Assembly: GCA_028279685.1 (NCBI GenBank)
Contig: JANQNG010000051.1
Coordinates: forward strand, 9-64,008
DNA length: 64,000 nucleotides
Origin: Candidatus Nanoarchaeia archaeon
GTDB taxonomy: Archaea > Nanobdellota > Nanobdellia > Woesearchaeales > SKIA01
Direction of reading: 5' to 3'
Shown in pieces: positions 372-42,211 of the stretch; the first letter of the stretch is position 1, and each line of letters begins with the position of its first letter. The translations under genes were made by a program, and so were the position numbers. The notes below the pieces were generated by a model. It was not told the origin of the DNA. It did no database searches and saw only the letters and a list, made by a program, of their open reading frames with translations.

Positions 372-2978
372 TTATTCATCTTCAAACAATTCTTTAATGT
401 AGACATTTCCATTTCTATTCAAAGATCTATAACATTCCTGTTTAATATATTCATCTTCGAATCCCATTGATCGTAATGTATCAACAGCCAAATCTATCAT
501 CTTATATTTCTCCTGCATAATTTCATTGTGCTCAACTTCAATTTTTTTGACAAGTGCAGTGAGTGTATTATTTATTTCTTCTTTCATCTTATTTTGTTCA
601 GCTACTGCAGCATCGTATTTCTTTTTTGCAGCACCTCTGAGTTTTTCAAGAGGATTAGCAAGAATAAGATCACGCTCATGATATGAATTACATCCTCTTT
701 GCCACTCCACAGTAGCCCAGCCCCCTAAAGCATCTCTGCCTCCATCACCAAAATTCTGCTTTAATATTCCTCCTTCTTTAGGAATCTGATTATCACATCC
801 ATAAAATTCGGAATCTTTACGCAGCTTTACTTTAGCTCCAGCTCTCATTTCTCCTCTGAAGATTTCATCAAAGTGAAATGCCTTTTCAACAGGAGCTAAT
901 TTACATTCAATATTTACATTATAACCCTCAATATTAACCCAATGACAGTCTCCTCCACGAGAATGAGTGCCTTTGTATTTTGCAATGGTGTTTTTTTTAT
1001 AACCATTTTCTTTGTCTTTTTCAAGGAGCACAACTTTTTGTCCTTTCTTGAATTTCTTCTTCTGCCCTTCAATAATCCTATATCCTTTAAAAACATACTC
1101 TGACAAGTTTTCTTTAAAATTTACATACTCCTTCTCAGCCATTGTGGCATCTGGATATCGAATAATAAGTTTCATCTCATCCTTAACAGCCTGAAGAACT
1201 TTCCAAGCAAGATTAGCATAACTTACTTCATCAAATTCATTGATCTCCTCAAAGATTGTTCTCTCCTGCAAAGCATCTTCACTAATAATATCTCTATACT
1301 CTTTTACTCTATTATAAAAGAACCATGTTATAACTCCTTCAGGAATACCCATTGCCCTAAACGTATCAAGACTGGAAGTGATTAACTCTTTTCTCCATTG
1401 CTTTTGTTGTGCATATTCTCCTTCAGCCTCTTTAATAATACTTTCAAATTCTTTAAGCAATCCTCCTGTTATCTTTTCAATCTCTTCATTTTTCTTTTTC
1501 ACAGCCTCTTCATCAATCTCTTCAATGTTTACATCGATTTTTTCTATATCAGCATAATTTCTTGGAAGTCTGTCTCCAAATCCAGGAATATGATGAAATT
1601 CGATCTCATAGTGATTATTATCACGCCCTTTGCCAACAATATATCCCCAACTACCTTTTTTAGTGTGTTTATATTTTTCTCCATTAATAACTGTTGCTTT
1701 TCTTCGTCCCGCCTCAAGATTTTCAATATCGAACTCAAGCTCCTCAGCTAATACTATTTCTTCAGGATCTAGGTCAAAATCATATCCATCCAATTCAGAT
1801 CTGAATTCATCACCATCATAAAATCCTAATGTTCCGAGAGGAAGGCCATTAAGCAGAGTGCCATCAGCATATGCATTCCCTTTCAATGCTTTCACCGTAA
1901 TAGCAGATTTGTTCATCTCAGGAGCTTTTTTTGTCTTCTTATACATACTAATTTCAAAATGCAAAAGCTCTCTTTTGAACTTCTCATAATCTTCTTCATC
2001 GTATAAATCATCTAAGACATCACCTAAAAATAGATATAATCCTTTGCGCTCTCTAAGTTTCATTACAATATCTTTTGCAATATCTTCATAATCAAATGAC
2101 TTACTTTCCATCTCTTCAAATTGTTTCAAAATGTCTTGAGTATATCCAAAGCGAGATCGCAATACGCGATTGTATTGCTCTATAGCGTCTTCTATCTTCA
2201 TCTTCCTCAGTTTTTTCGTATGTTTCAATCCAAGGCCGATAATCACTCTTGTAGTTATATCCTCAAGACTTTGTTCAGGATCATTGATCATCTTTTGTAG
2301 ATTTGAAGATTCTTTTTTTGGGAGAAACTGTGCACTTTGTCCGATAAAGATCAATCGTGAAATCTCTTCTATTGTATTGACGAACTGTAAACGATGTTCA
2401 TATCCTTCAGTTAACGGTTTCAAAGCATGTGCAGCAATAAGTGATTCAGAAGAGAATCCTGTGAATAAAGGATTTTGGTATTCTTCGATAATCTCTTCTA
2501 CAACAGGAGTCTTTTTCTCTTCTTCAAGAACAAACTCTCCTGTTTCTATTGAAAATAATCGTTCAAGACTATCTGCAGCAGATCTGCTGAACGCAACAAC
2601 ATACTCATCAAAGGATACATTATGCCGTTCTTTCACAGAAATATGATGTTTAGCTATAGACTCTTTTGCAGCTAAAAAAGAGATGAATGTTTGCATTGAA
2701 GGAACATGCTCATTAGTGAGCATTGTTTTTGCAGATGCCATATTGCCATTTGCAAAATAAGAAGCAAGCATTCCAAAATAAGGCTGCTGTATCTCATGAT
2801 CAATTCTATTTTTTGAATCACTGCGTTCGAGTACAGAAGCTATTTTTTTGACAGGATCAAATGCTACAGGAGCCCATGCTATCTCTTCTTTGCCCCCAAA
2901 TTTTTGATTTTCAATACCTTCATCTAAAAGATCTGCTAAAAAATCATCTTCCTCAATAATCTCTTCTTGTTCTGTCAT
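372..2978 (-). CDS. large hypothetical protein (868 aa) with three SH3/MIB-HERC2-like beta modules and an internal module/coiled-coil/DT(F/L)R(A/S)MG duplication
   Basis: Long ORF whose ATG overlaps the stop of the E1 gene (ATGA at 2975-2978). The module at aa 711-773 (AGAKVKLRKDSEF...GGWATVEWQRGCNSYHERDLIL) fits the G-x-V...W-x-G...V-x-W-x-x-G...Y...DL pattern of MIB/HERC2-type domains. Weaker copies lie at aa ~425-480 and ~641-695. Confidence 0.8.
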   Translation of the reverse strand: MTEQEEIIEEDDFLADLLDEGIENQKFGGKEEIAWAPVAFDPVKKIASVLERSDSKNRIDHEIQQPYFGMLASYFANGNMASAKTMLTNEHVPSMQTFISFLAAKESIAKHHISVKERHNVSFDEYVVAFSRSAADSLERLFSIETGEFVLEEEKKTPVVEEIIEEYQNPLFTGFSSESLIAAHALKPLTEGYEHRLQFVNTIEEISRLIFIGQSAQFLPKKESSNLQKMINDPEQSLEDITTRVIIGLGLKHTKKLRKMKIEDAIEQYNRVLRSRFGYTQDILKQFEEMESKSFDYEDIAKDIVMKLRERKGLYLFLGDVLDDLYDEEDYEKFKRELLHFEISMYKKTKKAPEMNKSAITVKALKGNAYADGTLLNGLPLGTLGFYDGDEFRSELDGYDFDLDPEEIVLAEELEFDIENLEAGRRKATVINGEKYKHTKKGSWGYIVGKGRDNNHYEIEFHHIPGFGDRLPRNYADIEKIDVNIEEIDEEAVKKKNEEIEKITGGLLKEFESIIKEAEGEYAQQKQWRKELITSSLDTFRAMGIPEGVITWFFYNRVKEYRDIISEDALQERTIFEEINEFDEVSYANLAWKVLQAVKDEMKLIIRYPDATMAEKEYVNFKENLSEYVFKGYRIIEGQKKKFKKGQKVVLLEKDKENGYKKNTIAKYKGTHSRGGDCHWVNIEGYNVNIECKLAPVEKAFHFDEIFRGEMRAGAKVKLRKDSEFYGCDNQIPKEGGILKQNFGDGGRDALGGWATVEWQRGCNSYHERDLILANPLEKLRGAAKKKYDAAVAEQNKMKEEINNTLTALVKKIEVEHNEIMQEKYKMIDLAVDTLRSMGFEDEYIKQECYRSLNRNGNVYIKELFEDE

Positions 2979-4468
2979 GCTTCTTGAACCTCTTCTTGCA
3001 AAAGATGAGGATTTGCTTCAACAAATGCAGCAACATCTTCATCTGAAATTTCTAAATCAGGAATATTGTGATGATAACAATCACAGATATCAACTAAAGG
3101 AGAAGTACCGAATCGTTTTTGACCTGTTGATCTGTAGACTTGTTCTCCGTTGAATGGCTCCCCAAAAACATCTGGTCGAAGAACAGTATATGCATCAAGC
3201 ATCGCTGCAACTGCTCCAATAGCGTTGCTCATCACAACAGAAGGATCAGGATTTGCAGCGCAGCTCGCTCTTCTAATCATCTCTTCCTTTCTTCCCTCTT
3301 CATAGATATTGAACATGCAATCCATGCATTGCGTCTTTCCTTCTTGATGTATATCCCATCGTGCGCTATACGGCAATGCTCCTGCGCTTATGGAAGGAAT
3401 TCCTTTTTTGATAGCATATGCTGCATTAATTGCTCTTGTATAACTATTATCAACAAAATCAAACACCACGTCATATTTTATATCAGTATCAAATCCTGGC
3501 AAGATCAAAAGATTATACCCAGTTGATTTTGTTTTTCCTTTGCTCATTTTTTCTATTTTATCAGCAACATGTTCTGCTTTTAGTTTGTCAATACCATCAT
3601 ATGCTAGTATCTGCCTATTAACATTATGTGATTCAAACGTATCGTAATCATACATATCAAGCCTGCCAAATTTCATCAATGTTCCTGCCACGGCACCCCA
3701 GCAGCCTAAACCACCTCCTCCAAGCATAGCAGCAGAAAAATTTTTCAATCCCTTTTCACCAATGAGAGTAGTATTTTCATTCTGAGGAAATCCGAAGCGA
3801 TATCCCTCGCCAAGTTTATACCTCACAGGATCTTCAACTAATGGTTCGCCAAAGATTGCTTTTCTCACCTCTTCTGTAATTACTCCTGCCATAATAAGCG
3901 CCATTAATGCGCTCTGTTGATGTCCTTCAAACATAGGCATAAGAAATGCAGGATCCTGCACTCCATTGACGGTCATAAGTTTTGTATAGCCAGAACGTGA
4001 AGATGTGCTAAGCACGGGAATATCATTCTCTTTTCCATACTGGATCGCCCATCTCTTTGATGCTGCATCATTTGTTGCATCAATAATAACATCAGCACCT
4101 TCTAACGTCAATTGATCTATTCTTGATTCCAGATTAGTTGTATAGCCCTCTATAGTAACCTGCTTATTGATTTTCTGCATAAGCTGAGGATATTGTTCTG
4201 CTTTTGCCCCTTTAGGAACAGACATATCAAGAAACATCTCTCCTCTCTTCACATTACTGCCATCAATCAACACAATATTGCCAACACCTAATGATGTCAT
4301 ACATAACGCAGCATAGACTCCTTGATGATCAAGCCCAACAACAGCAACACGAGCCTGTTCTAATCGTGCTTGTCCATCATCTCCCCAAAGTAACTTCTGA
4401 CGAGCATATCGGTCTTCCTCAATCATCATACCATCTTTCTTTTTCATTGTATTTTCCTCAATGCTCAT
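2975..4468 (-). CDS. ubiquitin-activating E1-like enzyme (ThiF/MoeB/UBA superfamily) with tandem degenerate and intact adenylation domains
   Basis: N-terminal half: DRYARQKLLWG...VAVVGLDHQG...DGSNVKRGE is a ThiF-like fold lacking both the GxGxxG and NxxRQ motifs. C-terminal half is intact: LGGGGLGCWG, DYDTFESHNVNRQ, DFVDN, CMDC...CDC zinc pair, and Cys403 (RRASCAANP) between them. Confidence 0.85.
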   Translation of the reverse strand: MSIEENTMKKKDGMMIEEDRYARQKLLWGDDGQARLEQARVAVVGLDHQGVYAALCMTSLGVGNIVLIDGSNVKRGEMFLDMSVPKGAKAEQYPQLMQKINKQVTIEGYTTNLESRIDQLTLEGADVIIDATNDAASKRWAIQYGKENDIPVLSTSSRSGYTKLMTVNGVQDPAFLMPMFEGHQQSALMALIMAGVITEEVRKAIFGEPLVEDPVRYKLGEGYRFGFPQNENTTLIGEKGLKNFSAAMLGGGGLGCWGAVAGTLMKFGRLDMYDYDTFESHNVNRQILAYDGIDKLKAEHVADKIEKMSKGKTKSTGYNLLILPGFDTDIKYDVVFDFVDNSYTRAINAAYAIKKGIPSISAGALPYSARWDIHQEGKTQCMDCMFNIYEEGRKEEMIRRASCAANPDPSVVMSNAIGAVAAMLDAYTVLRPDVFGEPFNGEQVYRSTGQKRFGTSPLVDICDCYHHNIPDLEISDEDVAAFVEANPHLLQEEVQEA

Positions 4469-6398
4469 CTATGTCATTTCTATCGCTTGTCCCTGAAGAT
4501 CCTATTGGCGTATTATCCCTAATTCTCTTGTATGCCTCAATAACAATAGGGACGTAGTTCTCCAACAGTTTATTTCTTCCTTCTGTACTTGCTTGCGCAA
4601 AGCTATCCATGAACTGCCAGGTAAACTCATCAGCATCTCCAATATAGATCAATTCATGAATTGCATTAGATATAGCATCATCAAGTCTATATGCGCCTGG
4701 CATTTTATGCTTTTTGACAACAAATTCATTATCAGGAATCAAATCACCAACTCTCAATACCGAAGAGGAAACACCGAATAAGAGAGGATCTGTCCTTGGC
4801 CTAGCAGCATACCTATTGACATATGTTGACATCTTATCCAATAAAAACCACGCATAGGTTGAATATTTACATCCTACACTTCTTGCCTCAACAATATAAG
4901 CAGCCAAAGAATAGACAAACCGTTGAGCTATTTCCTCATATTCAAGTGAACTTTCTATCCTAATTTTCATCTCTTGATCATTAGGTAATCTCGTTGATGC
5001 CTTTGTTACTGATCCTCCTTCATTAAGCGCTTCCAATAATGAATTGTCTTCTTCAACAGGTGGTTCCGGCAAAACTAAACTATCCAGGCTTTCCTGTAAC
5101 GTTCTTGGATGCTGATGAATAGGGTAATTTCCGCTATAGATTCCTTCCTGATATATGTAATTTTCATCCTGCCAATTTCTTACTCCAGAAGGCACATTTG
5201 AAACATGAGTTCCATGCATTCCATCTCCTCTAAGAGCACCTGCCACTTTCGCAACAACTTTTTGTTTAGGAGGGAATTTAACACGTTCTTTGACAAGCGC
5301 AGCAACTTCTTCTTTTGTAGGAATATCTATTCCTTTATTCCTCACAATAAGATGCAATCCATTTTCATCATTAGTATCTACGGTAGCATAATTTACTTTT
5401 CCTGTGAGCTTGAATTTCTCCTCAATACCCATCTTAATGTACGGTCCGCCTTTTGCATTATTGAAAACAAAACTTACCGCCGTATGCACTAATCTGGGCT
5501 CGTATGTTCGCTCATCAATTTGCTCTAGCAATCTTGCCAAGAAGTCAGCCTTTTTGAATCCATTGCCATTTGGCTTCAATCCAAATTCATCAAGCAGATT
5601 AAAAAACATCTCATCGTCAGGATAGATGAATCTTTTAACAGCATCTGATAATGCATCACCCTTCAAGCAAAGCTGATCCTCACCATACTCTTTTCTAATT
5701 TTATCTTCAATTAAAGCATACGGTGATTCAATAATACGTCTCGATGTTTTAGCCATTTTATTCACGAGGCTCTTCAAAGACTCATCATCATCTATGCTAT
5801 GATAAAGAGAAGCTTCCTTGTTCCTGTTAGATCCAAAAGGATGAATATGGAACATTGCACCTAAGCGATATTCCGTTCCATTTTCTTTATTCAAAGCCCT
5901 ATTTTCTCTTGCTACTTGATCGTAATGCTCCGCAATTCGGATATCTCTTGAACTAACGGGAAGATCTTTAGGTATAATAAAATCTCTGAATGAAAAAGTA
6001 TCATCGTCCTTATTGATCAGAAAAAATCCTCCTACTTCAAGCGCTTTCTTTCCTTGCTTTTTTGTTTCAGAACCTATCTTATACCCTAATTGCAAACATC
6101 TATCAGCAATATAGATTGTTCTGGGAATAATATCAGTAATAGGCTCTATAGGTTCTGTTTCTTCCTCTTCATCAAGAAAAGTATTAAATAATTCATCAGC
6201 GTAATCTTCATGAATATCATCTAGATTTTCTCCCCTATTAGCAGGACCGTGAATTTGACAGGTTTCATCCAGGCATTCTTCTTCAGCAATAACTTTTGTA
6301 ACAGGAGTTTTTCTCTTTTTTCTTCTCTTCCGACCTGTTTTACTACTTTTTTTATTCGTTGTCATGATCATCACCTTCGAGCGTAATTTTTTTCTCAA
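4458..6398 (-). CDS. JAB/MPN+ (JAMM) metalloprotease-domain protein with basic N-terminal tail and ~430-aa C-terminal extension
   Basis: ALEVGGFFL (Glu121) followed by MFHIHPFGSNRNKEASLYHSIDD gives E...HxH...SxxD with a longer than canonical spacer. The stop overlaps the E1 start by 11 nt. The true start may be Met10 or Met12 (GGTGA upstream). Confidence 0.8.
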   Translation of the reverse strand: MRKKLRSKVMIMTTNKKSSKTGRKRRKKRKTPVTKVIAEEECLDETCQIHGPANRGENLDDIHEDYADELFNTFLDEEEETEPIEPITDIIPRTIYIADRCLQLGYKIGSETKKQGKKALEVGGFFLINKDDDTFSFRDFIIPKDLPVSSRDIRIAEHYDQVARENRALNKENGTEYRLGAMFHIHPFGSNRNKEASLYHSIDDDESLKSLVNKMAKTSRRIIESPYALIEDKIRKEYGEDQLCLKGDALSDAVKRFIYPDDEMFFNLLDEFGLKPNGNGFKKADFLARLLEQIDERTYEPRLVHTAVSFVFNNAKGGPYIKMGIEEKFKLTGKVNYATVDTNDENGLHLIVRNKGIDIPTKEEVAALVKERVKFPPKQKVVAKVAGALRGDGMHGTHVSNVPSGVRNWQDENYIYQEGIYSGNYPIHQHPRTLQESLDSLVLPEPPVEEDNSLLEALNEGGSVTKASTRLPNDQEMKIRIESSLEYEEIAQRFVYSLAAYIVEARSVGCKYSTYAWFLLDKMSTYVNRYAARPRTDPLLFGVSSSVLRVGDLIPDNEFVVKKHKMPGAYRLDDAISNAIHELIYIGDADEFTWQFMDSFAQASTEGRNKLLENYVPIVIEAYKRIRDNTPIGSSGTSDRNDIDEH

Positions 6399-7791
6399 TC
6401 ACCTCAACAACCATATATCTTTTTTCTATGGCCTGTTCTCTTGTCATTGATCCTTGCTTCAGAATATTATCAAGATGATCTCCAAAATATCGATATCCTG
6501 AATGTGAATCAAGGCTCGATTTATTCAGAGGCTGGAGAAATACATTTGCAGCATCACTGAGTTTTCGTATCATATCGCTTATCGTATTTCTATAATCGCG
6601 AGGATTTCTACTAAGATTGCACAGTGTTCTATATCCTCCTGAAGATCTGCCTTTTAAACAAGGATGAAATTCCCTCTTTTCAACAATAAGAGGATTACCT
6701 GTTGTGTATGGTTTTTTATCCCATCCAATTTTGATAGCGACGCGAGTTGCTTCATACGGCCAGAAAACATCATGATTTCTGCCATCTTGCGTAACAAATT
6801 TCGGCAGTCGTGAATAAACATAATAATCTCCATTTTTTAAGATAAACCCGCACTCTCCTAAATCGTACTCATCAAGTTTCGCAAGCTCATGCATCTGCAT
6901 CCCAGTAACTTCTTTTGTTTCAATCTGATCTTTAATCTGATCAAACGCATCCTGGCTTCTTTCAAGAGCATTAATACGCCATTTCTTTTTGCTTCGCTCG
7001 ATAAATTCATGTTCTATCTCTTTAAGAGAAGGTAATCTTTCTTTTGATAGAGATAATATCTTACCATCAATGTTGAATACAAATTGATCTTTTTTTGCAG
7101 CCTTATGTTTCTGCAATGCCAAAAAATTTCTGCCAACAATGTACAATGCAAAAACTTTTCCATCAACAACATATAATGGTTGATATGCAGTTATTTCTCC
7201 CAATAATGATTTTGGAACGCCATTAGTATGTACAAATTGAGGAACAATTGCACCAGTTTTTATTTCTCTTTTCTCTTTTTTGAGCACTGATTGTCTCATC
7301 CTTTCAGCAGGATCCTGCTTTTCTCCCATTTCCATATTGCCGAAATCAGCTGTAAGTTTCTCTCTAATTTCTTTCTTGGCTCTTTCAAGAGGCTGTTCAA
7401 CTTTTGTTTCTTCAAAAATTTCCTCTTGAAGCAACTCATCAGAGACGTATTTTTTACTTAGCAAATACGGTAAAAACTCTTCCATAATGTAATGTAATGC
7501 ATGTATTCTACTCTCTTCTTGCTTCAGTTCACTTTCCGCACGCAATTCTTTATCAATTGTATCTTTGACAAATTCTCTGGAATATGATTCTATACTTTTT
7601 CTCTGTAACTGCTCATCAAGCAATTCCCATTCTCGATAAGAAAGCGATGGCATTATAGGTAATTGTATCTCTCCTGCTTGTAAAAAATCAGAGGATTTGC
7701 CGGAATCAATTATACTAAACACTCTTCCTTCATAAAGAATAAAGGAAGATTCCCTTTCGGCAATCCTTTCTAAAAAACTCGTTATTTCCAT
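6352..7791 (-). CDS. hypothetical protein (479 aa) with candidate E2/UBC-like catalytic core in the C-terminal third
   Basis: aa ~320-425: YYVYSRLP...WPYEATRVAIKIGWDKKPY...REFHPCLKGRSSGGYRTLCNL...ISDMIRKLSDAANVFLQPLN. This resembles the UBC layout: beta sheet, HP(N) flap, Cys, then a helix ending in P-L-N. It sits between the 205-aa ORF and the JAB gene. The assignment is inference only. Confidence 0.45.
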   Translation of the reverse strand: MEITSFLERIAERESSFILYEGRVFSIIDSGKSSDFLQAGEIQLPIMPSLSYREWELLDEQLQRKSIESYSREFVKDTIDKELRAESELKQEESRIHALHYIMEEFLPYLLSKKYVSDELLQEEIFEETKVEQPLERAKKEIREKLTADFGNMEMGEKQDPAERMRQSVLKKEKREIKTGAIVPQFVHTNGVPKSLLGEITAYQPLYVVDGKVFALYIVGRNFLALQKHKAAKKDQFVFNIDGKILSLSKERLPSLKEIEHEFIERSKKKWRINALERSQDAFDQIKDQIETKEVTGMQMHELAKLDEYDLGECGFILKNGDYYVYSRLPKFVTQDGRNHDVFWPYEATRVAIKIGWDKKPYTTGNPLIVEKREFHPCLKGRSSGGYRTLCNLSRNPRDYRNTISDMIRKLSDAANVFLQPLNKSSLDSHSGYRYFGDHLDNILKQGSMTREQAIEKRYMVVEVIEKKITLEGDDHDNE

Positions 7792-7815: not shown

Positions 7816-8433
7816 TTAGCTTTGCAAAGCATATCCTGGCGTAATAATAGCAGATACAACAAGCTCGATACCAGCCATCATCTCAACAGGCTTATCCTTA
7901 TCCATAACACGTTTATCTTTTTCTCCTATTTCATCAATTGGCTTTGGAACCTTCTTTTTGCCTTCCTGAACAAAACCCATCTTAACAAAATAACTATTCA
8001 GCATCGAATCTCCTGTCACTCTCTGTCCATTAACACTAAGAGCATAACCTCTAAAGTTTCCTCCTCGCTTTGCTGCTAAATCTTTGACTTCTCCTGTTCC
8101 TAGCATTTCGTCTTTGATACGATCAATAGCTTCCTGCTGTTTCCTGTTAATATTTCTCTGATATTTTGCTCTGTCTTTTTCAGGAACTGCTTTACCGCTC
8201 AATTTCACTTCTTCGCCAATTGTATACTGTGCAATTTGCTCTGCAGTACCATATGCGAGAATCGCTCTGTCTTGCCCTCTTACCGAGTAGGTAACACGAT
8301 CACCCTCAATACATCCAGGGTAAACAGTTAATGCCATAGGCATATCTCCTATATCATCCAGCGTAAATGCCTTCTTTCTTATCTTCTTTTCACCATCTTT
8401 ATTTTCCGGTCTTTCGCCATCGTATTTTCCCAT
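7816..8433 (-). CDS. hypothetical protein (205 aa); possible Ubl/substrate candidate of the operon
   Basis: ORF preceded by a GGGGGAAAG SD-like motif. Internal ...DLAAKRGG|NFRG (aa 118-128) followed by a ThiS/MoaD-like YALSVNGQRVTGDSM stretch. There is no C-terminal GG. Confidence 0.6.
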   Translation of the reverse strand: MGKYDGERPENKDGEKKIRKKAFTLDDIGDMPMALTVYPGCIEGDRVTYSVRGQDRAILAYGTAEQIAQYTIGEEVKLSGKAVPEKDRAKYQRNINRKQQEAIDRIKDEMLGTGEVKDLAAKRGGNFRGYALSVNGQRVTGDSMLNSYFVKMGFVQEGKKKVPKPIDEIGEKDKRVMDKDKPVEMMAGIELVVSAIITPGYALQS

Positions 8434-8473: not shown

Positions 8474-8707
8474 TCAGGATGTCTTATCCTCCTTGCCTTC
8501 TACAAGATTATGTATATCCTGAAATTGACGATCATAATTTCTTGTCATAAGATTAATTATTTCTGTGGCATCGCAATCAAAAATAATCTCTCTCCAAAAT
8601 TCAGCATTAAGAAAGCTTCTTTTTAAACCCTCTTTCCGTGTGATGTGCAAATCTAGCTGATTCAACAAAAATGGATAATTATTACGGATTTCCTTCGTAT
8701 CGAACAT
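8474..8707 (-). CDS. hypothetical small protein (77 aa), first gene of the operon
   Basis: ORF only. It is co-directional, 40 nt upstream of the next gene and downstream of an AT-rich promoter-like region. No recognisable motif. Confidence 0.45.
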   Translation of the reverse strand: MFDTKEIRNNYPFLLNQLDLHITRKEGLKRSFLNAEFWREIIFDCDATEIINLMTRNYDRQFQDIHNLVEGKEDKTS

Positions 8708-8841: not shown

Positions 8842-10209
8842 ATGGATACGTTAGCAACAATAATCAGATCAATCAATGGAAATACTCCAGATCCTGAAGA
8901 GGTAACTCTTGAAGAACTCCCCATAGATTATAAAGAATTTTGTGATCAACTCATAGAATCTACTGCAAAAACATTAGATCTTTCTTTAAAAAGAAATAAA
9001 TTTCTCCATACAAGCAACGATGATGCATTAATTCCAAATGCCGCAAAATATATCAAATCAGCCATTATTAATATGCAGAAGAATTCATTAATTCCAGAAC
9101 TAAAAATTGGGGAAAAAGTAAGGCCAGTTCAACTTCTAGGGTTTGATGTTGAAAATCCTGATAAAGAAACGTATTATTATGGAGGAGACACTGATGATAT
9201 TCCTTTAGGCATAGAAGCTTTTGTAGCAGAAATTCCTACGAAAGAAAGAATAAAAGTGATCATAAAAAATGGAAAGCAATCTAAGATATGGCAATTACAC
9301 CCTAATGAAATAGAAACAACAAGCGAGAATATTTACTCTGCCTTGATGGAAAGTAATCGTATTGAAACATCACTTAGTGAAGATGTGAAGAAATTATTCC
9401 CTGGATTTATTCACAGAGCCAAAATTCTTGTTGATAGTAGTTATGCTCTCTCAAAATCATTTGTTCCTTTAGATATTGAGATGCCAAAAGCACTCGCACC
9501 CTTCTCCATTTACACTAGTTCTCTTGAACAACAACTTATTGAAAAATATGGAAGGCCAGATATCAGCAAACTTAAATTACGATGCAAGATAGATGAAGCA
9601 GAAGAAAAAAATTGCAATACCGCTGTTCCAGGATTCAAATATAGAAGAGATTACCAGCATCTCGCAAAAGCATTCAAAGGACTCAAGACTCCTTGCTCAA
9701 TGCACGTTCACTCTCTTGATGAGTTAAAGATGCATATTTCAATTGTTTACCAGATTGCATTCAATCATTATGTCCTCGGTAAATCTACAGCAATGCAAGG
9801 AAGATTTCCCAATAATTGCTGTGGAGAGTCAGGAGGAAATATGTTTAATTCATTATTGAATTTTGGATATGTCAATACCTTTAAAATGAGCAGCAATAAT
9901 GATCATTGTTATGTATCACTTCCTTTTGTCCTTGATGGAGTTGGAGGTTGTGTTGTTTGCGACCCTACTTCCAATCAGATGTGGCATAAATTAAAGATTG
10001 CTCCTAGAAATGCAGTTTTTATTATGTTAGGACCAGATTTTGAATACAAAACACATTGGCATGGTGGTGTTGATCTTATTCCAGGATCTTGCAATTATAT
10101 CTCAATAGAGAATAATCATGCTTCAACAAAGAATGGAGAAATAAGAAAATCATTGGAAAACGCTTACAATAATCCTGTCAGATTATTCAATCGAAATGAT
10201 ATTCTCTGA
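8842..10209 (+). CDS. hypothetical protein with C-terminal papain/transglutaminase-fold Cys-His-Asp core
   Basis: NNCCGESGGNMFNSLLNFGY...NNDHCYVSLPF...GGCVVCDPTSNQ (Cys326/327, His355, Asp374). This has the order and spacing typical of transglutaminase-like cysteine peptidase cores. Divergently transcribed from the E1/JAB operon. Confidence 0.55.
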   Translation: MDTLATIIRSINGNTPDPEEVTLEELPIDYKEFCDQLIESTAKTLDLSLKRNKFLHTSNDDALIPNAAKYIKSAIINMQKNSLIPELKIGEKVRPVQLLGFDVENPDKETYYYGGDTDDIPLGIEAFVAEIPTKERIKVIIKNGKQSKIWQLHPNEIETTSENIYSALMESNRIETSLSEDVKKLFPGFIHRAKILVDSSYALSKSFVPLDIEMPKALAPFSIYTSSLEQQLIEKYGRPDISKLKLRCKIDEAEEKNCNTAVPGFKYRRDYQHLAKAFKGLKTPCSMHVHSLDELKMHISIVYQIAFNHYVLGKSTAMQGRFPNNCCGESGGNMFNSLLNFGYVNTFKMSSNNDHCYVSLPFVLDGVGGCVVCDPTSNQMWHKLKIAPRNAVFIMLGPDFEYKTHWHGGVDLIPGSCNYISIENNHASTKNGEIRKSLENAYNNPVRLFNRNDIL

Positions 10210-41854: not shown

Positions 41855-41920
41855 GCCTTATTGAGACAAGTACAAGAATATATATTTTGTGAATCTTGAG
41901 AGTTTTATTTATAAAAGAAA

Positions 41921-42190
41921 GAGGGCACGCCCCTGGATGGACACAAACAACCCATTTCGGCTTACCCTAGGCTTTCCTCCCCTCCGCTACCCAAGATACA
42001 CAGCTATTCTCACTTAGAGCTGCTTCATTCCTGACCTGACTCGGTTCGTAAGAACCACCGTCATCAAGGACAGAGGATCGACAGTCCCCCTAGGACCAAA
42101 CTGAGCAGCAATGCCGCTCCAGGAGCTTCGACCATACCATAAGGCCCGTTTGTACTAACAGGGAAGGGCCAACTCCCCAGCCTAGCCCAT
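41921..42190 (-). ncRNA. signal recognition particle RNA (archaeal 7S/SRP RNA)
   Basis: ORF-free, GC-enriched block. The minus strand reads GGGCTAGGCTGGGGAGTTGGCCC... (Alu-domain 5' end) and ...GAGTCAGGTCAGGAATGAAGCAGCTCTAAG (helix-8 GGUCAGG...GAAGCAGC motif). TATA-like CTTTAAAA lies ~25 nt upstream and a T-rich tract downstream. Confidence 0.85.
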
Positions 42191-42211
42191 ACATAGTAAA
42201 TCAGAAGTTGC

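Follow-up and report, generated by a model that had tools for sequence, protein, structure and literature searches.

An 868-residue protein with a duplicated SH3-like barrel unit, encoded next to a fused E1-like enzyme in a DPANN archaeon, as a putative non-catalytic adaptor

What does a large unannotated protein contribute to an archaeal operon that is centred on a ubiquitin-activating-type (E1) enzyme? This question is raised by an open reading frame (ORF) of 868 codons in Candidatus Nanoarchaeia archaeon (GenBank assembly GCA_028279685.1, contig JANQNG010000051.1, positions 9 to 64,008; these 64,000 nucleotides are referred to as the window), located directly downstream of a gene for a fused two-domain ThiF/E1-like enzyme. 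A first-pass annotation, made from the sequence and its ORFs without database searches, had proposed a substrate-recognition or E3-like scaffold for this E1. Our analysis revealed that the protein, termed adaptor in the following, combines a helical head with two copies of a unit of about 295 residues with SH3-like barrels, and that one copy of this unit is also found fused to enzymes of the operon. In our judgement the chances are about even that the adaptor is the non-catalytic hub of an E1-centred operon of DPANN archaea, made together with the E1 and binding either a ligand or the enzymes that carry the unit.

The ORF (P0001) is a real gene. Its start overlaps the stop of the E1 gene by 4 nt, and its own stop lies 2 nt before the start of a gene for a radical S-adenosylmethionine (SAM) enzyme. 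When 1.84 billion representative proteins were scanned exhaustively with HMMER, a family of 38 representatives emerged, 17 of them at E<1e-30, and all named relatives are deposited as 'hypothetical protein' from metagenome-assembled genomes of Nanoarchaeota or Woesearchaeota. Among 401 genomes of the same order, the family profile matched 20, about ten of them at full length; the 1.9-Mb genome of the window harbors a single copy. The family is real, rare, patchy, and unannotated. For the whole 868-aa protein, no sequence match was obtained in Pfam, PADLOC, or the PDB, a word-indexed homologue search with either the single protein or the alignment as query returned the query itself only, and a metagenome pattern scan detected no relatives. 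A profile search against the PDB revealed only designed helical repeats, plus weak matches to L24 and PsaE. Longer variants of 1034–1232 aa also belong to the family, and these showed no Pfam catalytic domain that would hint at a function.

For the architecture, an AlphaFold2 (AF2) model based on a 38-sequence alignment was used, which reached a mean pLDDT (predicted local distance difference test) of 86.6 and a pTM (predicted template modelling score) of 0.68, while a single-sequence run remained unusable (pLDDT 34). The model displays an all-helical head, four five-stranded modules at high pLDDT, and two long helices, leading to a division into head (residues 1–270) and two units of about 295 residues (271–572 and 573–868; Table 1). 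In each unit, an alpha/beta lead-in, characterized in unit 1 by the motif Y..A..I..L...G..F...Y..FK, is followed by two SH3-like barrels (A and B), a long helix, and a helix-Gly-helix cap. The long helices are closed by the motifs DTFRAMG (residues 538–544) and DTLRSMG (833–839), respectively, and the short capping helices come after the conserved Gly of this DT.R.MG motif. The head begins with an acidic N-terminus and contains a highly conserved helix at residues ~28–52 with the motif F-D-P-V-x-x-I-A-x-x-L-E, in which E31 is invariant (18/18) and A47 is present in 17 of 18 homologues. No relative of the head was found elsewhere in the window genome.

The internal duplication is real and far beyond chance. 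Comparison of the family profiles of residues 355–600 and 630–868 with hhalign gave a probability of 99.5% (E 1.4e-22, 191 columns), and in searches with hidden Markov models (HMMs) the unit-2 HMM matched unit 1 over the whole unit at E 9e-24 and the unit-1 HMM matched unit 2 at E 3.6e-15. A self-BLAST of the whole protein revealed no repeat, so that segment-wise BLAST and profile methods were needed; BLASTP between the two motif-bearing segments then gave E 2e-4. Since a profile of residues 540–640 also matched residues ~271–351 (E 1e-8), the repeat extends upstream to about residue 271. At the level of single barrels, A1 matched A2 at E 4.4e-9 and B1 matched B2 at E 1.8e-5, and because A and B barrels also matched each other (E 6e-5 to 4e-4, all by hhalign), all four are probably related. 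The first-pass annotation had recognized a duplication with three beta modules at nucleotides ~1539–1706, 894–1058, and 660–848. These correspond closely to barrels B1, A2, and B2 of the model, but barrel A1 had been overlooked and the repeat extends further than stated there. The Lys/Glu-rich helices running into DT(F/L)R(A/S)MG, which it had placed after the first and the third module, also recur in the model.

The unit is not confined to the adaptor. Using the N-terminal regions of the downstream radical SAM proteins as query, tblastn detected a divergent ORF of 455 aa in the window (8842–10209; E 2e-12), and the two regions align. A joint profile of the radical SAM N-region and the 455-aa protein matched the adaptor family by hhalign with a probability of 97% and E-values of 3e-11 to 6e-11 over 176–235 columns, with secondary matches on each lead-in plus A-barrel at 5e-6 and 2e-5. 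In agreement, a genome-wide search with the unit-1 HMM picked up the 455-aa ORF (E 2e-4), and in a related genome (G295) the adaptor-family profile matched a 766-aa ORF directly downstream of the homologue. Judged by these profiles, the radical SAM N-region is a member of the same unit family as the 868-aa protein, and since the matches occur in the N-regions of both the radical SAM and the 455-aa proteins, the unit is a portable element fused to different operon enzymes. In L016 and G018, two radical SAM paralogues with the unit lie side by side, and the window genome possesses two single-unit proteins, namely the radical SAM enzyme and the 455-aa protein. Neither the unit nor any shared module was found in the JAMM-like, E2-like, and small proteins of the operon, in a ~650-aa protein (X1) of related operons, or in two other downstream proteins. 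The C-terminal ~200 residues of the 455-aa protein revealed no family match; this protein is also unrelated to the ~650-aa protein encoded upstream in relatives.

With respect to catalysis, the alignment of 18 full-length homologues of the adaptor contains no conserved Cys or His column; the most conserved columns are Gly and hydrophobic residues, in addition to the N-terminal helix. Pfam, the PDB, and the alignment revealed no Zn-ligand pattern and no RING/U-box, HECT, or RBR feature. Since conserved Cys and His residues are missing, chemistry of the RING, HECT, RBR, or E2 type is ruled out. Apart from E31, the fairly conserved polar residues are E205, Y297, and E407 (15/18 each) and D770 (14/18).

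What the barrels resemble was addressed by fold and profile comparison. A Foldseek search of the full model against the PDB returned paired small barrels as top matches, all without significance (E 0.04 or worse), namely HERC2 (9l8y, E 0.044), the tandem Tudor domains of BAHCC1 and 53BP1, the SH3-like tandem of KIN17, and Spindlin. Entry 9l8y covers HERC2 residues 2540–2700, i.e., the CPH domain and the INBD barrel, and not the MIB/HERC2 domain (PMC12318192). A viral fold library yielded only uncharacterised multi-barrel phage proteins, and whole family proteins gave only weak SH3-fold matches in Pfam (KOW, PsaE, DUF1918, DUF4314, MSSS). When modules were scanned in isolation, a match to SH3_15 (PF18346, the Mind bomb SH3 repeat) was obtained for the module that orthologues carry at the B1 position, a 'YYYGG ... 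W.(C/L)HP(D/E)EL' variant. The match of orthologue P0012 exceeded the gathering score of 24 bits (27.6 bits, E 3.6e-6, profile positions 1–67 of 67), while P0020 (E 2.2e-3), P0019, P0005, and one radical SAM N-module stayed below it; apart from P0012 and P0020, E-values ranged from 0.06 to 0.12. Across 61 related genomes, the single PF18346 match was a paralogue of the adaptor, so that the signal is specific to the adaptor family. That the window's B1 is homologous to these modules is taken from its position in the alignment. Taken from the model and the orthologues, this suggests an SH3-like fold for the window barrels; the SH3-like modules of the first-pass annotation are thus supported by the five strands in the model and by the orthologue match, but not by a Pfam match of the window's own modules.

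The same annotation had seen the MIB/HERC2 pattern in its last module (B2), and this did not hold. No PF06701 match was obtained for the window protein, either whole or as isolated modules, and within the family the best values came from one orthologue only and lay far below the cut-off (E 0.047 for an isolated module, 0.25 for the whole protein). As no ZZ, RING, or HECT domain occurs in any member either, we rejected membership in MIB/HERC2, leaving only a generic SH3-like resemblance. The C-terminal cap, modelled as the end of the long helix, a turn, and two short helices, matched UBA (PF00627) with 15.6 bits (threshold 22.4 bits; E 0.015), covering helix 1 and the loop only. Other matches, likewise sub-threshold, were WIYLD (0.028), the UBA of HHR23A (0.26–0.46), and the HhH of topoisomerase V (0.004). 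With such scores, an assignment of the MG(F/I) cap to UBA or HhH was not adopted and is mentioned as a lead only.

In genome G018, two tandem adaptor paralogues of 910 and 904 aa were found (C14, 2426–7899; L009/L012). They differ at barrel B1, one carrying the GSWGY and the other the YYYGG (SH3_15-like) variant, and two radical SAM genes that carry the unit come next.

Table 1. Features of the adaptor gene and its surroundings (positions in the window; residue numbers refer to the respective protein)
Feature	Position	Strand	Basis
Adaptor gene, 868 aa (P0001)	372..2978	-	ORF call, 38-representative family, AF2 pLDDT 86.6
N-terminal all-helical domain, residues 1-270	2169..2978	-	AF2 model, alignment
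Repeat unit 1, residues ~271-572	1263..2168	-	hhalign, unit HMMs
Barrel A1, residues 345-414, SH3-like	1737..1946	-	AF2 model; motif ITVKAL.G..Y.DGT....LPLGTLG; A1-A2 hhalign
Barrel B1, residues 427-485, GSWGY...IEFHH variant	1524..1700	-	AF2 model, alignment
Lys/Glu-rich long helix 1, residues 490-542, ending LDTFRAMGIPE (537-547)	1347..1511	-	AF2 model
Repeat unit 2, residues ~573-868, elements ordered as in unit 1	375..1262	-	hhalign, unit HMMs
Barrel A2, residues 633-699	882..1082	-	AF2 model, hhalign
Barrel B2, residues 716-773	660..833	-	AF2 model; motif G..V.IR.DS.Y..Q...G.......V.F..G....YR..DLE
55-residue helix 2 (783-837) ending VDTLRSMGFEDE, and two short C-terminal helices (842-865)	384..632	-	AF2 model
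N-terminal 123 aa of ~770-aa radical SAM protein, cut at contig end	1..369	-	31-34% identity to orthologues
Fused two-domain ThiF/E1-like enzyme, 497 aa, directly upstream of adaptor	2975-4468	-	Pfam ThiF
Operon gene, 646-aa protein	4458-6398	-	ORF
Operon gene, 479-aa protein	6352-7791	-	ORF
Operon gene, 205-aa small protein	7816-8433	-	ORF
Single adaptor unit in N-region (residues ~13-200) of divergent 455-aa protein (ORF 8842-10209)	8878..9444	+	tblastn, alignment, unit-1 HMM

The E1-like enzyme upstream of the adaptor matched Pfam ThiF in two stretches (2.4e-44). Its N-terminal half is closest to the regulatory E1 subunits APPBP1 and SAE1, and its C-terminal half is closest to UBA2, TcdA, and MccB and also resembles PaaA. 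In a synteny sample of eight loci, a tandem-ThiF gene was located directly upstream of the adaptor in all eight and a radical SAM gene directly downstream in six. A short downstream ORF fragment in G010 revealed no likeness to the radical SAM N-terminus. The C-terminal half (~410 aa) of the window's radical SAM protein was identified on another contig of the same assembly (C72:4-1251; 52% identity to the orthologue). The gene is split by a contig break, and ~230 residues including the adaptor unit are missing from the assembly. In relatives with a complete operon, the leading genes code for a cysteine desulfurase of the SufS family (E 7e-100) and a ~650-aa protein, and one to three class-B-like radical SAM genes stand at the end. 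From the sequence, SufS and the ~650-aa gene have apparently dropped out of the operon in the window genome; a 77-aa ORF (8474–8707, minus strand) is a remnant of the N-terminal part of SufS (tblastn E 9e-5, with a weak Pfam Aminotran_5 match).

As regards the three genes upstream of the E1, the 646-aa family harbors the pattern E(V/T)GG...FH(I/V)HP-x-...-HS-x-x-D, i.e., HxHx9Sx2D, in four orthologues, a spacing that differs from the canonical HxHx7Sx2D of JAMM. The 479-aa family shows a conserved H-P-C...C segment. In the 205-aa family an invariant Pro-Gly (P199-G200, ...VVSAIITPG) is followed by a short variable tail, and this Pro-Gly would be a plausible site for trimming and activation; an internal KRGG is not kept as Gly-Gly in the G010 orthologue. 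None of the three proteins gave a Pfam, PADLOC, or PDB-profile match for a JAB, E2, or ubiquitin-like (Ubl) identity. No profile match to ThiS/MoaD or to PqqD-like recognition elements of ribosomally synthesized and post-translationally modified peptide (RiPP) pathways was found anywhere in the operon, and PADLOC assigned 0 families to the adaptor and only weak E1-E2 (Cap2) matches to the E1. Two paralogous cassettes with the same four-gene order were detected in the genome (C35:76557-82041, plus strand; C79:64497-69105, minus strand), consisting of a small protein, a protein of ~450–500 aa, one of ~450–610 aa, and a tandem-ThiF E1 at 27–29% identity. Both have different downstream genes and no adaptor unit. 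Elsewhere in the window, an archaeal SRP RNA is encoded at 41919–42192 on the minus strand (Rfam RF01857, 122.5 bits). It identifies the organism as archaeal, and the Nanoarchaeota and Woesearchaeota names of family members assign it to the DPANN group.

How might the adaptor work in such an operon? Because one copy of the unit is fused to operon enzymes, we read the unit as a docking or recognition element and the 868-aa protein as its enzyme-free bivalent form. The adaptor would be made together with the E1 via the overlapping stop and start, and its barrels and long helices would hold a partner next to the E1. This partner may be a common ligand of the pathway, most plausibly the ~205-aa small protein or a protein to which it is attached, or else the unit-bearing enzymes themselves. 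The paired radical SAM paralogues of L016 and G018 and the two single-unit proteins of the window would fit such a pairing or bivalent unit. The ligand, the contact with the E1, and the product of the operon are what we infer here, and its chemistry could be Bil-like Ubl conjugation, a sulfur-carrier reaction, or a RiPP-like modification combining E1 adenylation with class-B radical SAM chemistry. The first-pass annotation had not seen the downstream radical SAM gene, the SufS of relatives, or the unit common to those enzymes, and it is these that place sulfur-carrier and RiPP-like readings beside the ubiquitin-like one. Of its scaffold for the adjacent E1, the scaffolding or recognition part fits well, given the strict synteny with the E1 (8/8) and the lack of catalytic residues, whereas the MIB/HERC2 membership and a catalytic E3 role do not. 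Several observations weigh against a non-catalytic hub as we picture it. No radical SAM gene lies downstream in L017, and in G048 the downstream radical SAM gene is of a unit-less B12 type, so that strict pairing of hub and enzyme is not universal. The window protein's four modules, scanned in isolation, match no Pfam family, and for the full-length query all fold matches to known domains stay below significance. As E2, JAB, and Ubl proteins, the neighbours are unproven candidates, and the pathway itself is uncertain. Finally, an unusual catalytic site could exist without invariant polar residues. A bolder version of the hub, which we regard as rather unlikely, takes the ~295-residue unit as an undescribed recognition element. 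It would guide radical SAM enzymes, and also a thiol-peptidase-like protein, to a protein that an E1/Ubl-type cassette has activated or tagged, and the 868-aa protein would bring the E1 and those enzymes together as an E3-like matchmaker.

Other explanations share part of this evidence. In eukaryotic E3 ligases, the Mind bomb REP domains and the HERC2 CPH-INBD pair bind targets, and the adaptor could likewise be the substrate receptor of a true Ubl cascade, as the first-pass annotation had it, its barrels binding targets (possibly viral or on the cell surface) and presenting them to an E2~Ubl. The matches of orthologue modules to SH3_15, the sporadic distribution (20/401 genomes), and two further four-gene cassettes with other downstream genes, as expected for exchangeable specificity modules, are in line with this, and the order of small protein, Cys-bearing 479-aa protein, HxH..S..D-containing 646-aa protein, and E1 copies the Ubl-E2-JAB-E1 order of Bil (PMC11601596). 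However, the E2-, JAMM-, and Ubl-like identities lack profile or PDB support, PADLOC detected no defence system, and the adaptor has neither a conserved Cys nor a RING, HECT, or RBR feature. Moreover, relatives add a SufS cysteine desulfurase, and the presence of the unit on radical SAM enzymes is unexpected for a plain substrate receptor, so we consider this explanation doubtful. The SufS at the start (E 7e-100) and the one to three class-B-like radical SAM genes at the end of relatives' operons, together with the remnant at 8474–8707, would suit a sulfur-carrier or RiPP-like pathway. There, the adaptor would be a carrier of recognition elements whose unit binds the ~205-aa protein as substrate or sulfur carrier. 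The small protein would be trimmed behind its Pro-Gly, adenylated by the E1, and modified by radical SAM enzymes, with the 868-aa protein chaperoning it from one enzyme to the next. E1-like enzymes adenylate peptide C-termini in pathways of the MccB/PaaA type and JAMM enzymes trim sulfur carriers of the CysO/QbsE type, which agrees with the MccB- and PaaA-like C half of the E1 and with the invariant ...ITPG before a variable tail. Yet neither an RRE/PqqD-like nor a ThiS/MoaD profile matched in the operon, the unit greatly exceeds known recognition elements in size and does not resemble them, and SufS, which has been lost from the operon in the window genome, could just supply the Fe-S clusters of the radical SAM enzymes. 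We therefore hold this option to be possible though improbable.

Two further explanations concern the adaptor itself. The enzyme-free double unit might act as a decoy that competes with the unit-bearing enzymes for their partner and keeps the pathway off until a signal arrives, or the protein might be a cytoskeletal-type coiled coil without a direct role in the chemistry. Its long helices and missing catalytic residues would suit this, and two units could mimic a dimer of single-unit enzymes, such as the adjacent unit-bearing radical SAM paralogues of L016 and G018; translational coupling to the E1 and the conserved helical head, however, point to a positive role in assembly, which makes it very unlikely in our view. 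An enzyme of an unrecognised kind, e.g., a ligase using non-Cys chemistry as in the oxyester pathways of Bub, would have a precedent, since the E1 and E2 enzymes of Bub work without a catalytic Cys (PMC11601596), and would find candidate residues in E31, E205, Y297, E407, and D770. But these polar residues lie dispersed across different domains, no enzyme family or fold was matched, and a duplicated barrel-helix architecture is typical of binding modules, so that we assign next to no probability to it.

If the bolder, recognition-element version of the hub holds, the adaptor would be part of an archaeal pathway joining C-terminal activation of the ubiquitin type to radical SAM chemistry, for which there is no described counterpart. 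To our knowledge, the described prokaryotic ubiquitin-like operons (Bil, Bub, CBASS Cap2/3, SAMP) have no dedicated specificity or scaffold factors. A conserved non-enzymatic protein coupled translationally to a eukaryote-style fused E1 would bear on the origin of E3-like matchmaking. Should the operon carry out sulfur-carrier or RiPP-like chemistry instead, the adaptor would still represent a new type of recognition-element carrier. In either case, its unit offers a new domain unit for the annotation of 'hypothetical' proteins of DPANN archaea, and the partner bound by the barrels would provide a concrete handle on the assembly and the targets of the pathway.

Compared with known systems, the REP region of Mind bomb 1 (tandem SH3_15, PF18346) comes close in that small SH3-like barrels are arranged in tandem and serve binding rather than catalysis. 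The adaptor is archaeal, though, has no ZZ, ankyrin, or RING domains, and carries its barrels within a ~295-residue unit with long helices. Pairs of five-stranded barrels that read ligands are likewise found in HERC2 CPH-INBD (9l8y; PMC12318192), 53BP1, BAHCC1, KIN17, and Spindlin, but with E-values of 0.04–0.1 and low TM-scores the likeness to these readers is one of fold only. Regarding gene content, the operon resembles BilABCD and Bub (6E/DUF6527) in the order of genes for a small, a Cys-bearing, and an HxH..S..D protein and the E1, and in its sporadic, accessory character (PMC10557695, PMC11601596), whereas those operons are without a large SH3-barrel adaptor, radical SAM enzymes, and SufS. 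Accordingly, the descriptions of Bil and Bub contain no adaptor-like component (PMC11601596), and PADLOC gave no match to accessories of Bil, Bub, or CBASS Cap2/Cap3. The sulfur-carrier systems CysO-MoeZ-Mec+, QbsE-QbsC-QbsD, and SAMP-UbaA-HvJAMM1 share with the operon an E1-like adenylating enzyme, a candidate JAMM, a small protein with Gly and tail, and, in relatives, a cysteine desulfurase, but they have no such adaptor and no radical SAM partners, and their E1 is a homodimer instead of a fused two-domain chain. RiPP recognition elements (PqqD-like RRE) are winged helices of ~90 residues that are fused to radical SAM enzymes or stand alone. Although the adaptor unit, with ~295 residues comprising barrels and helices, has no sequence or fold relation to them, the organization may be analogous, as one recognition module would occur both fused to enzymes and free of them in the same cluster.

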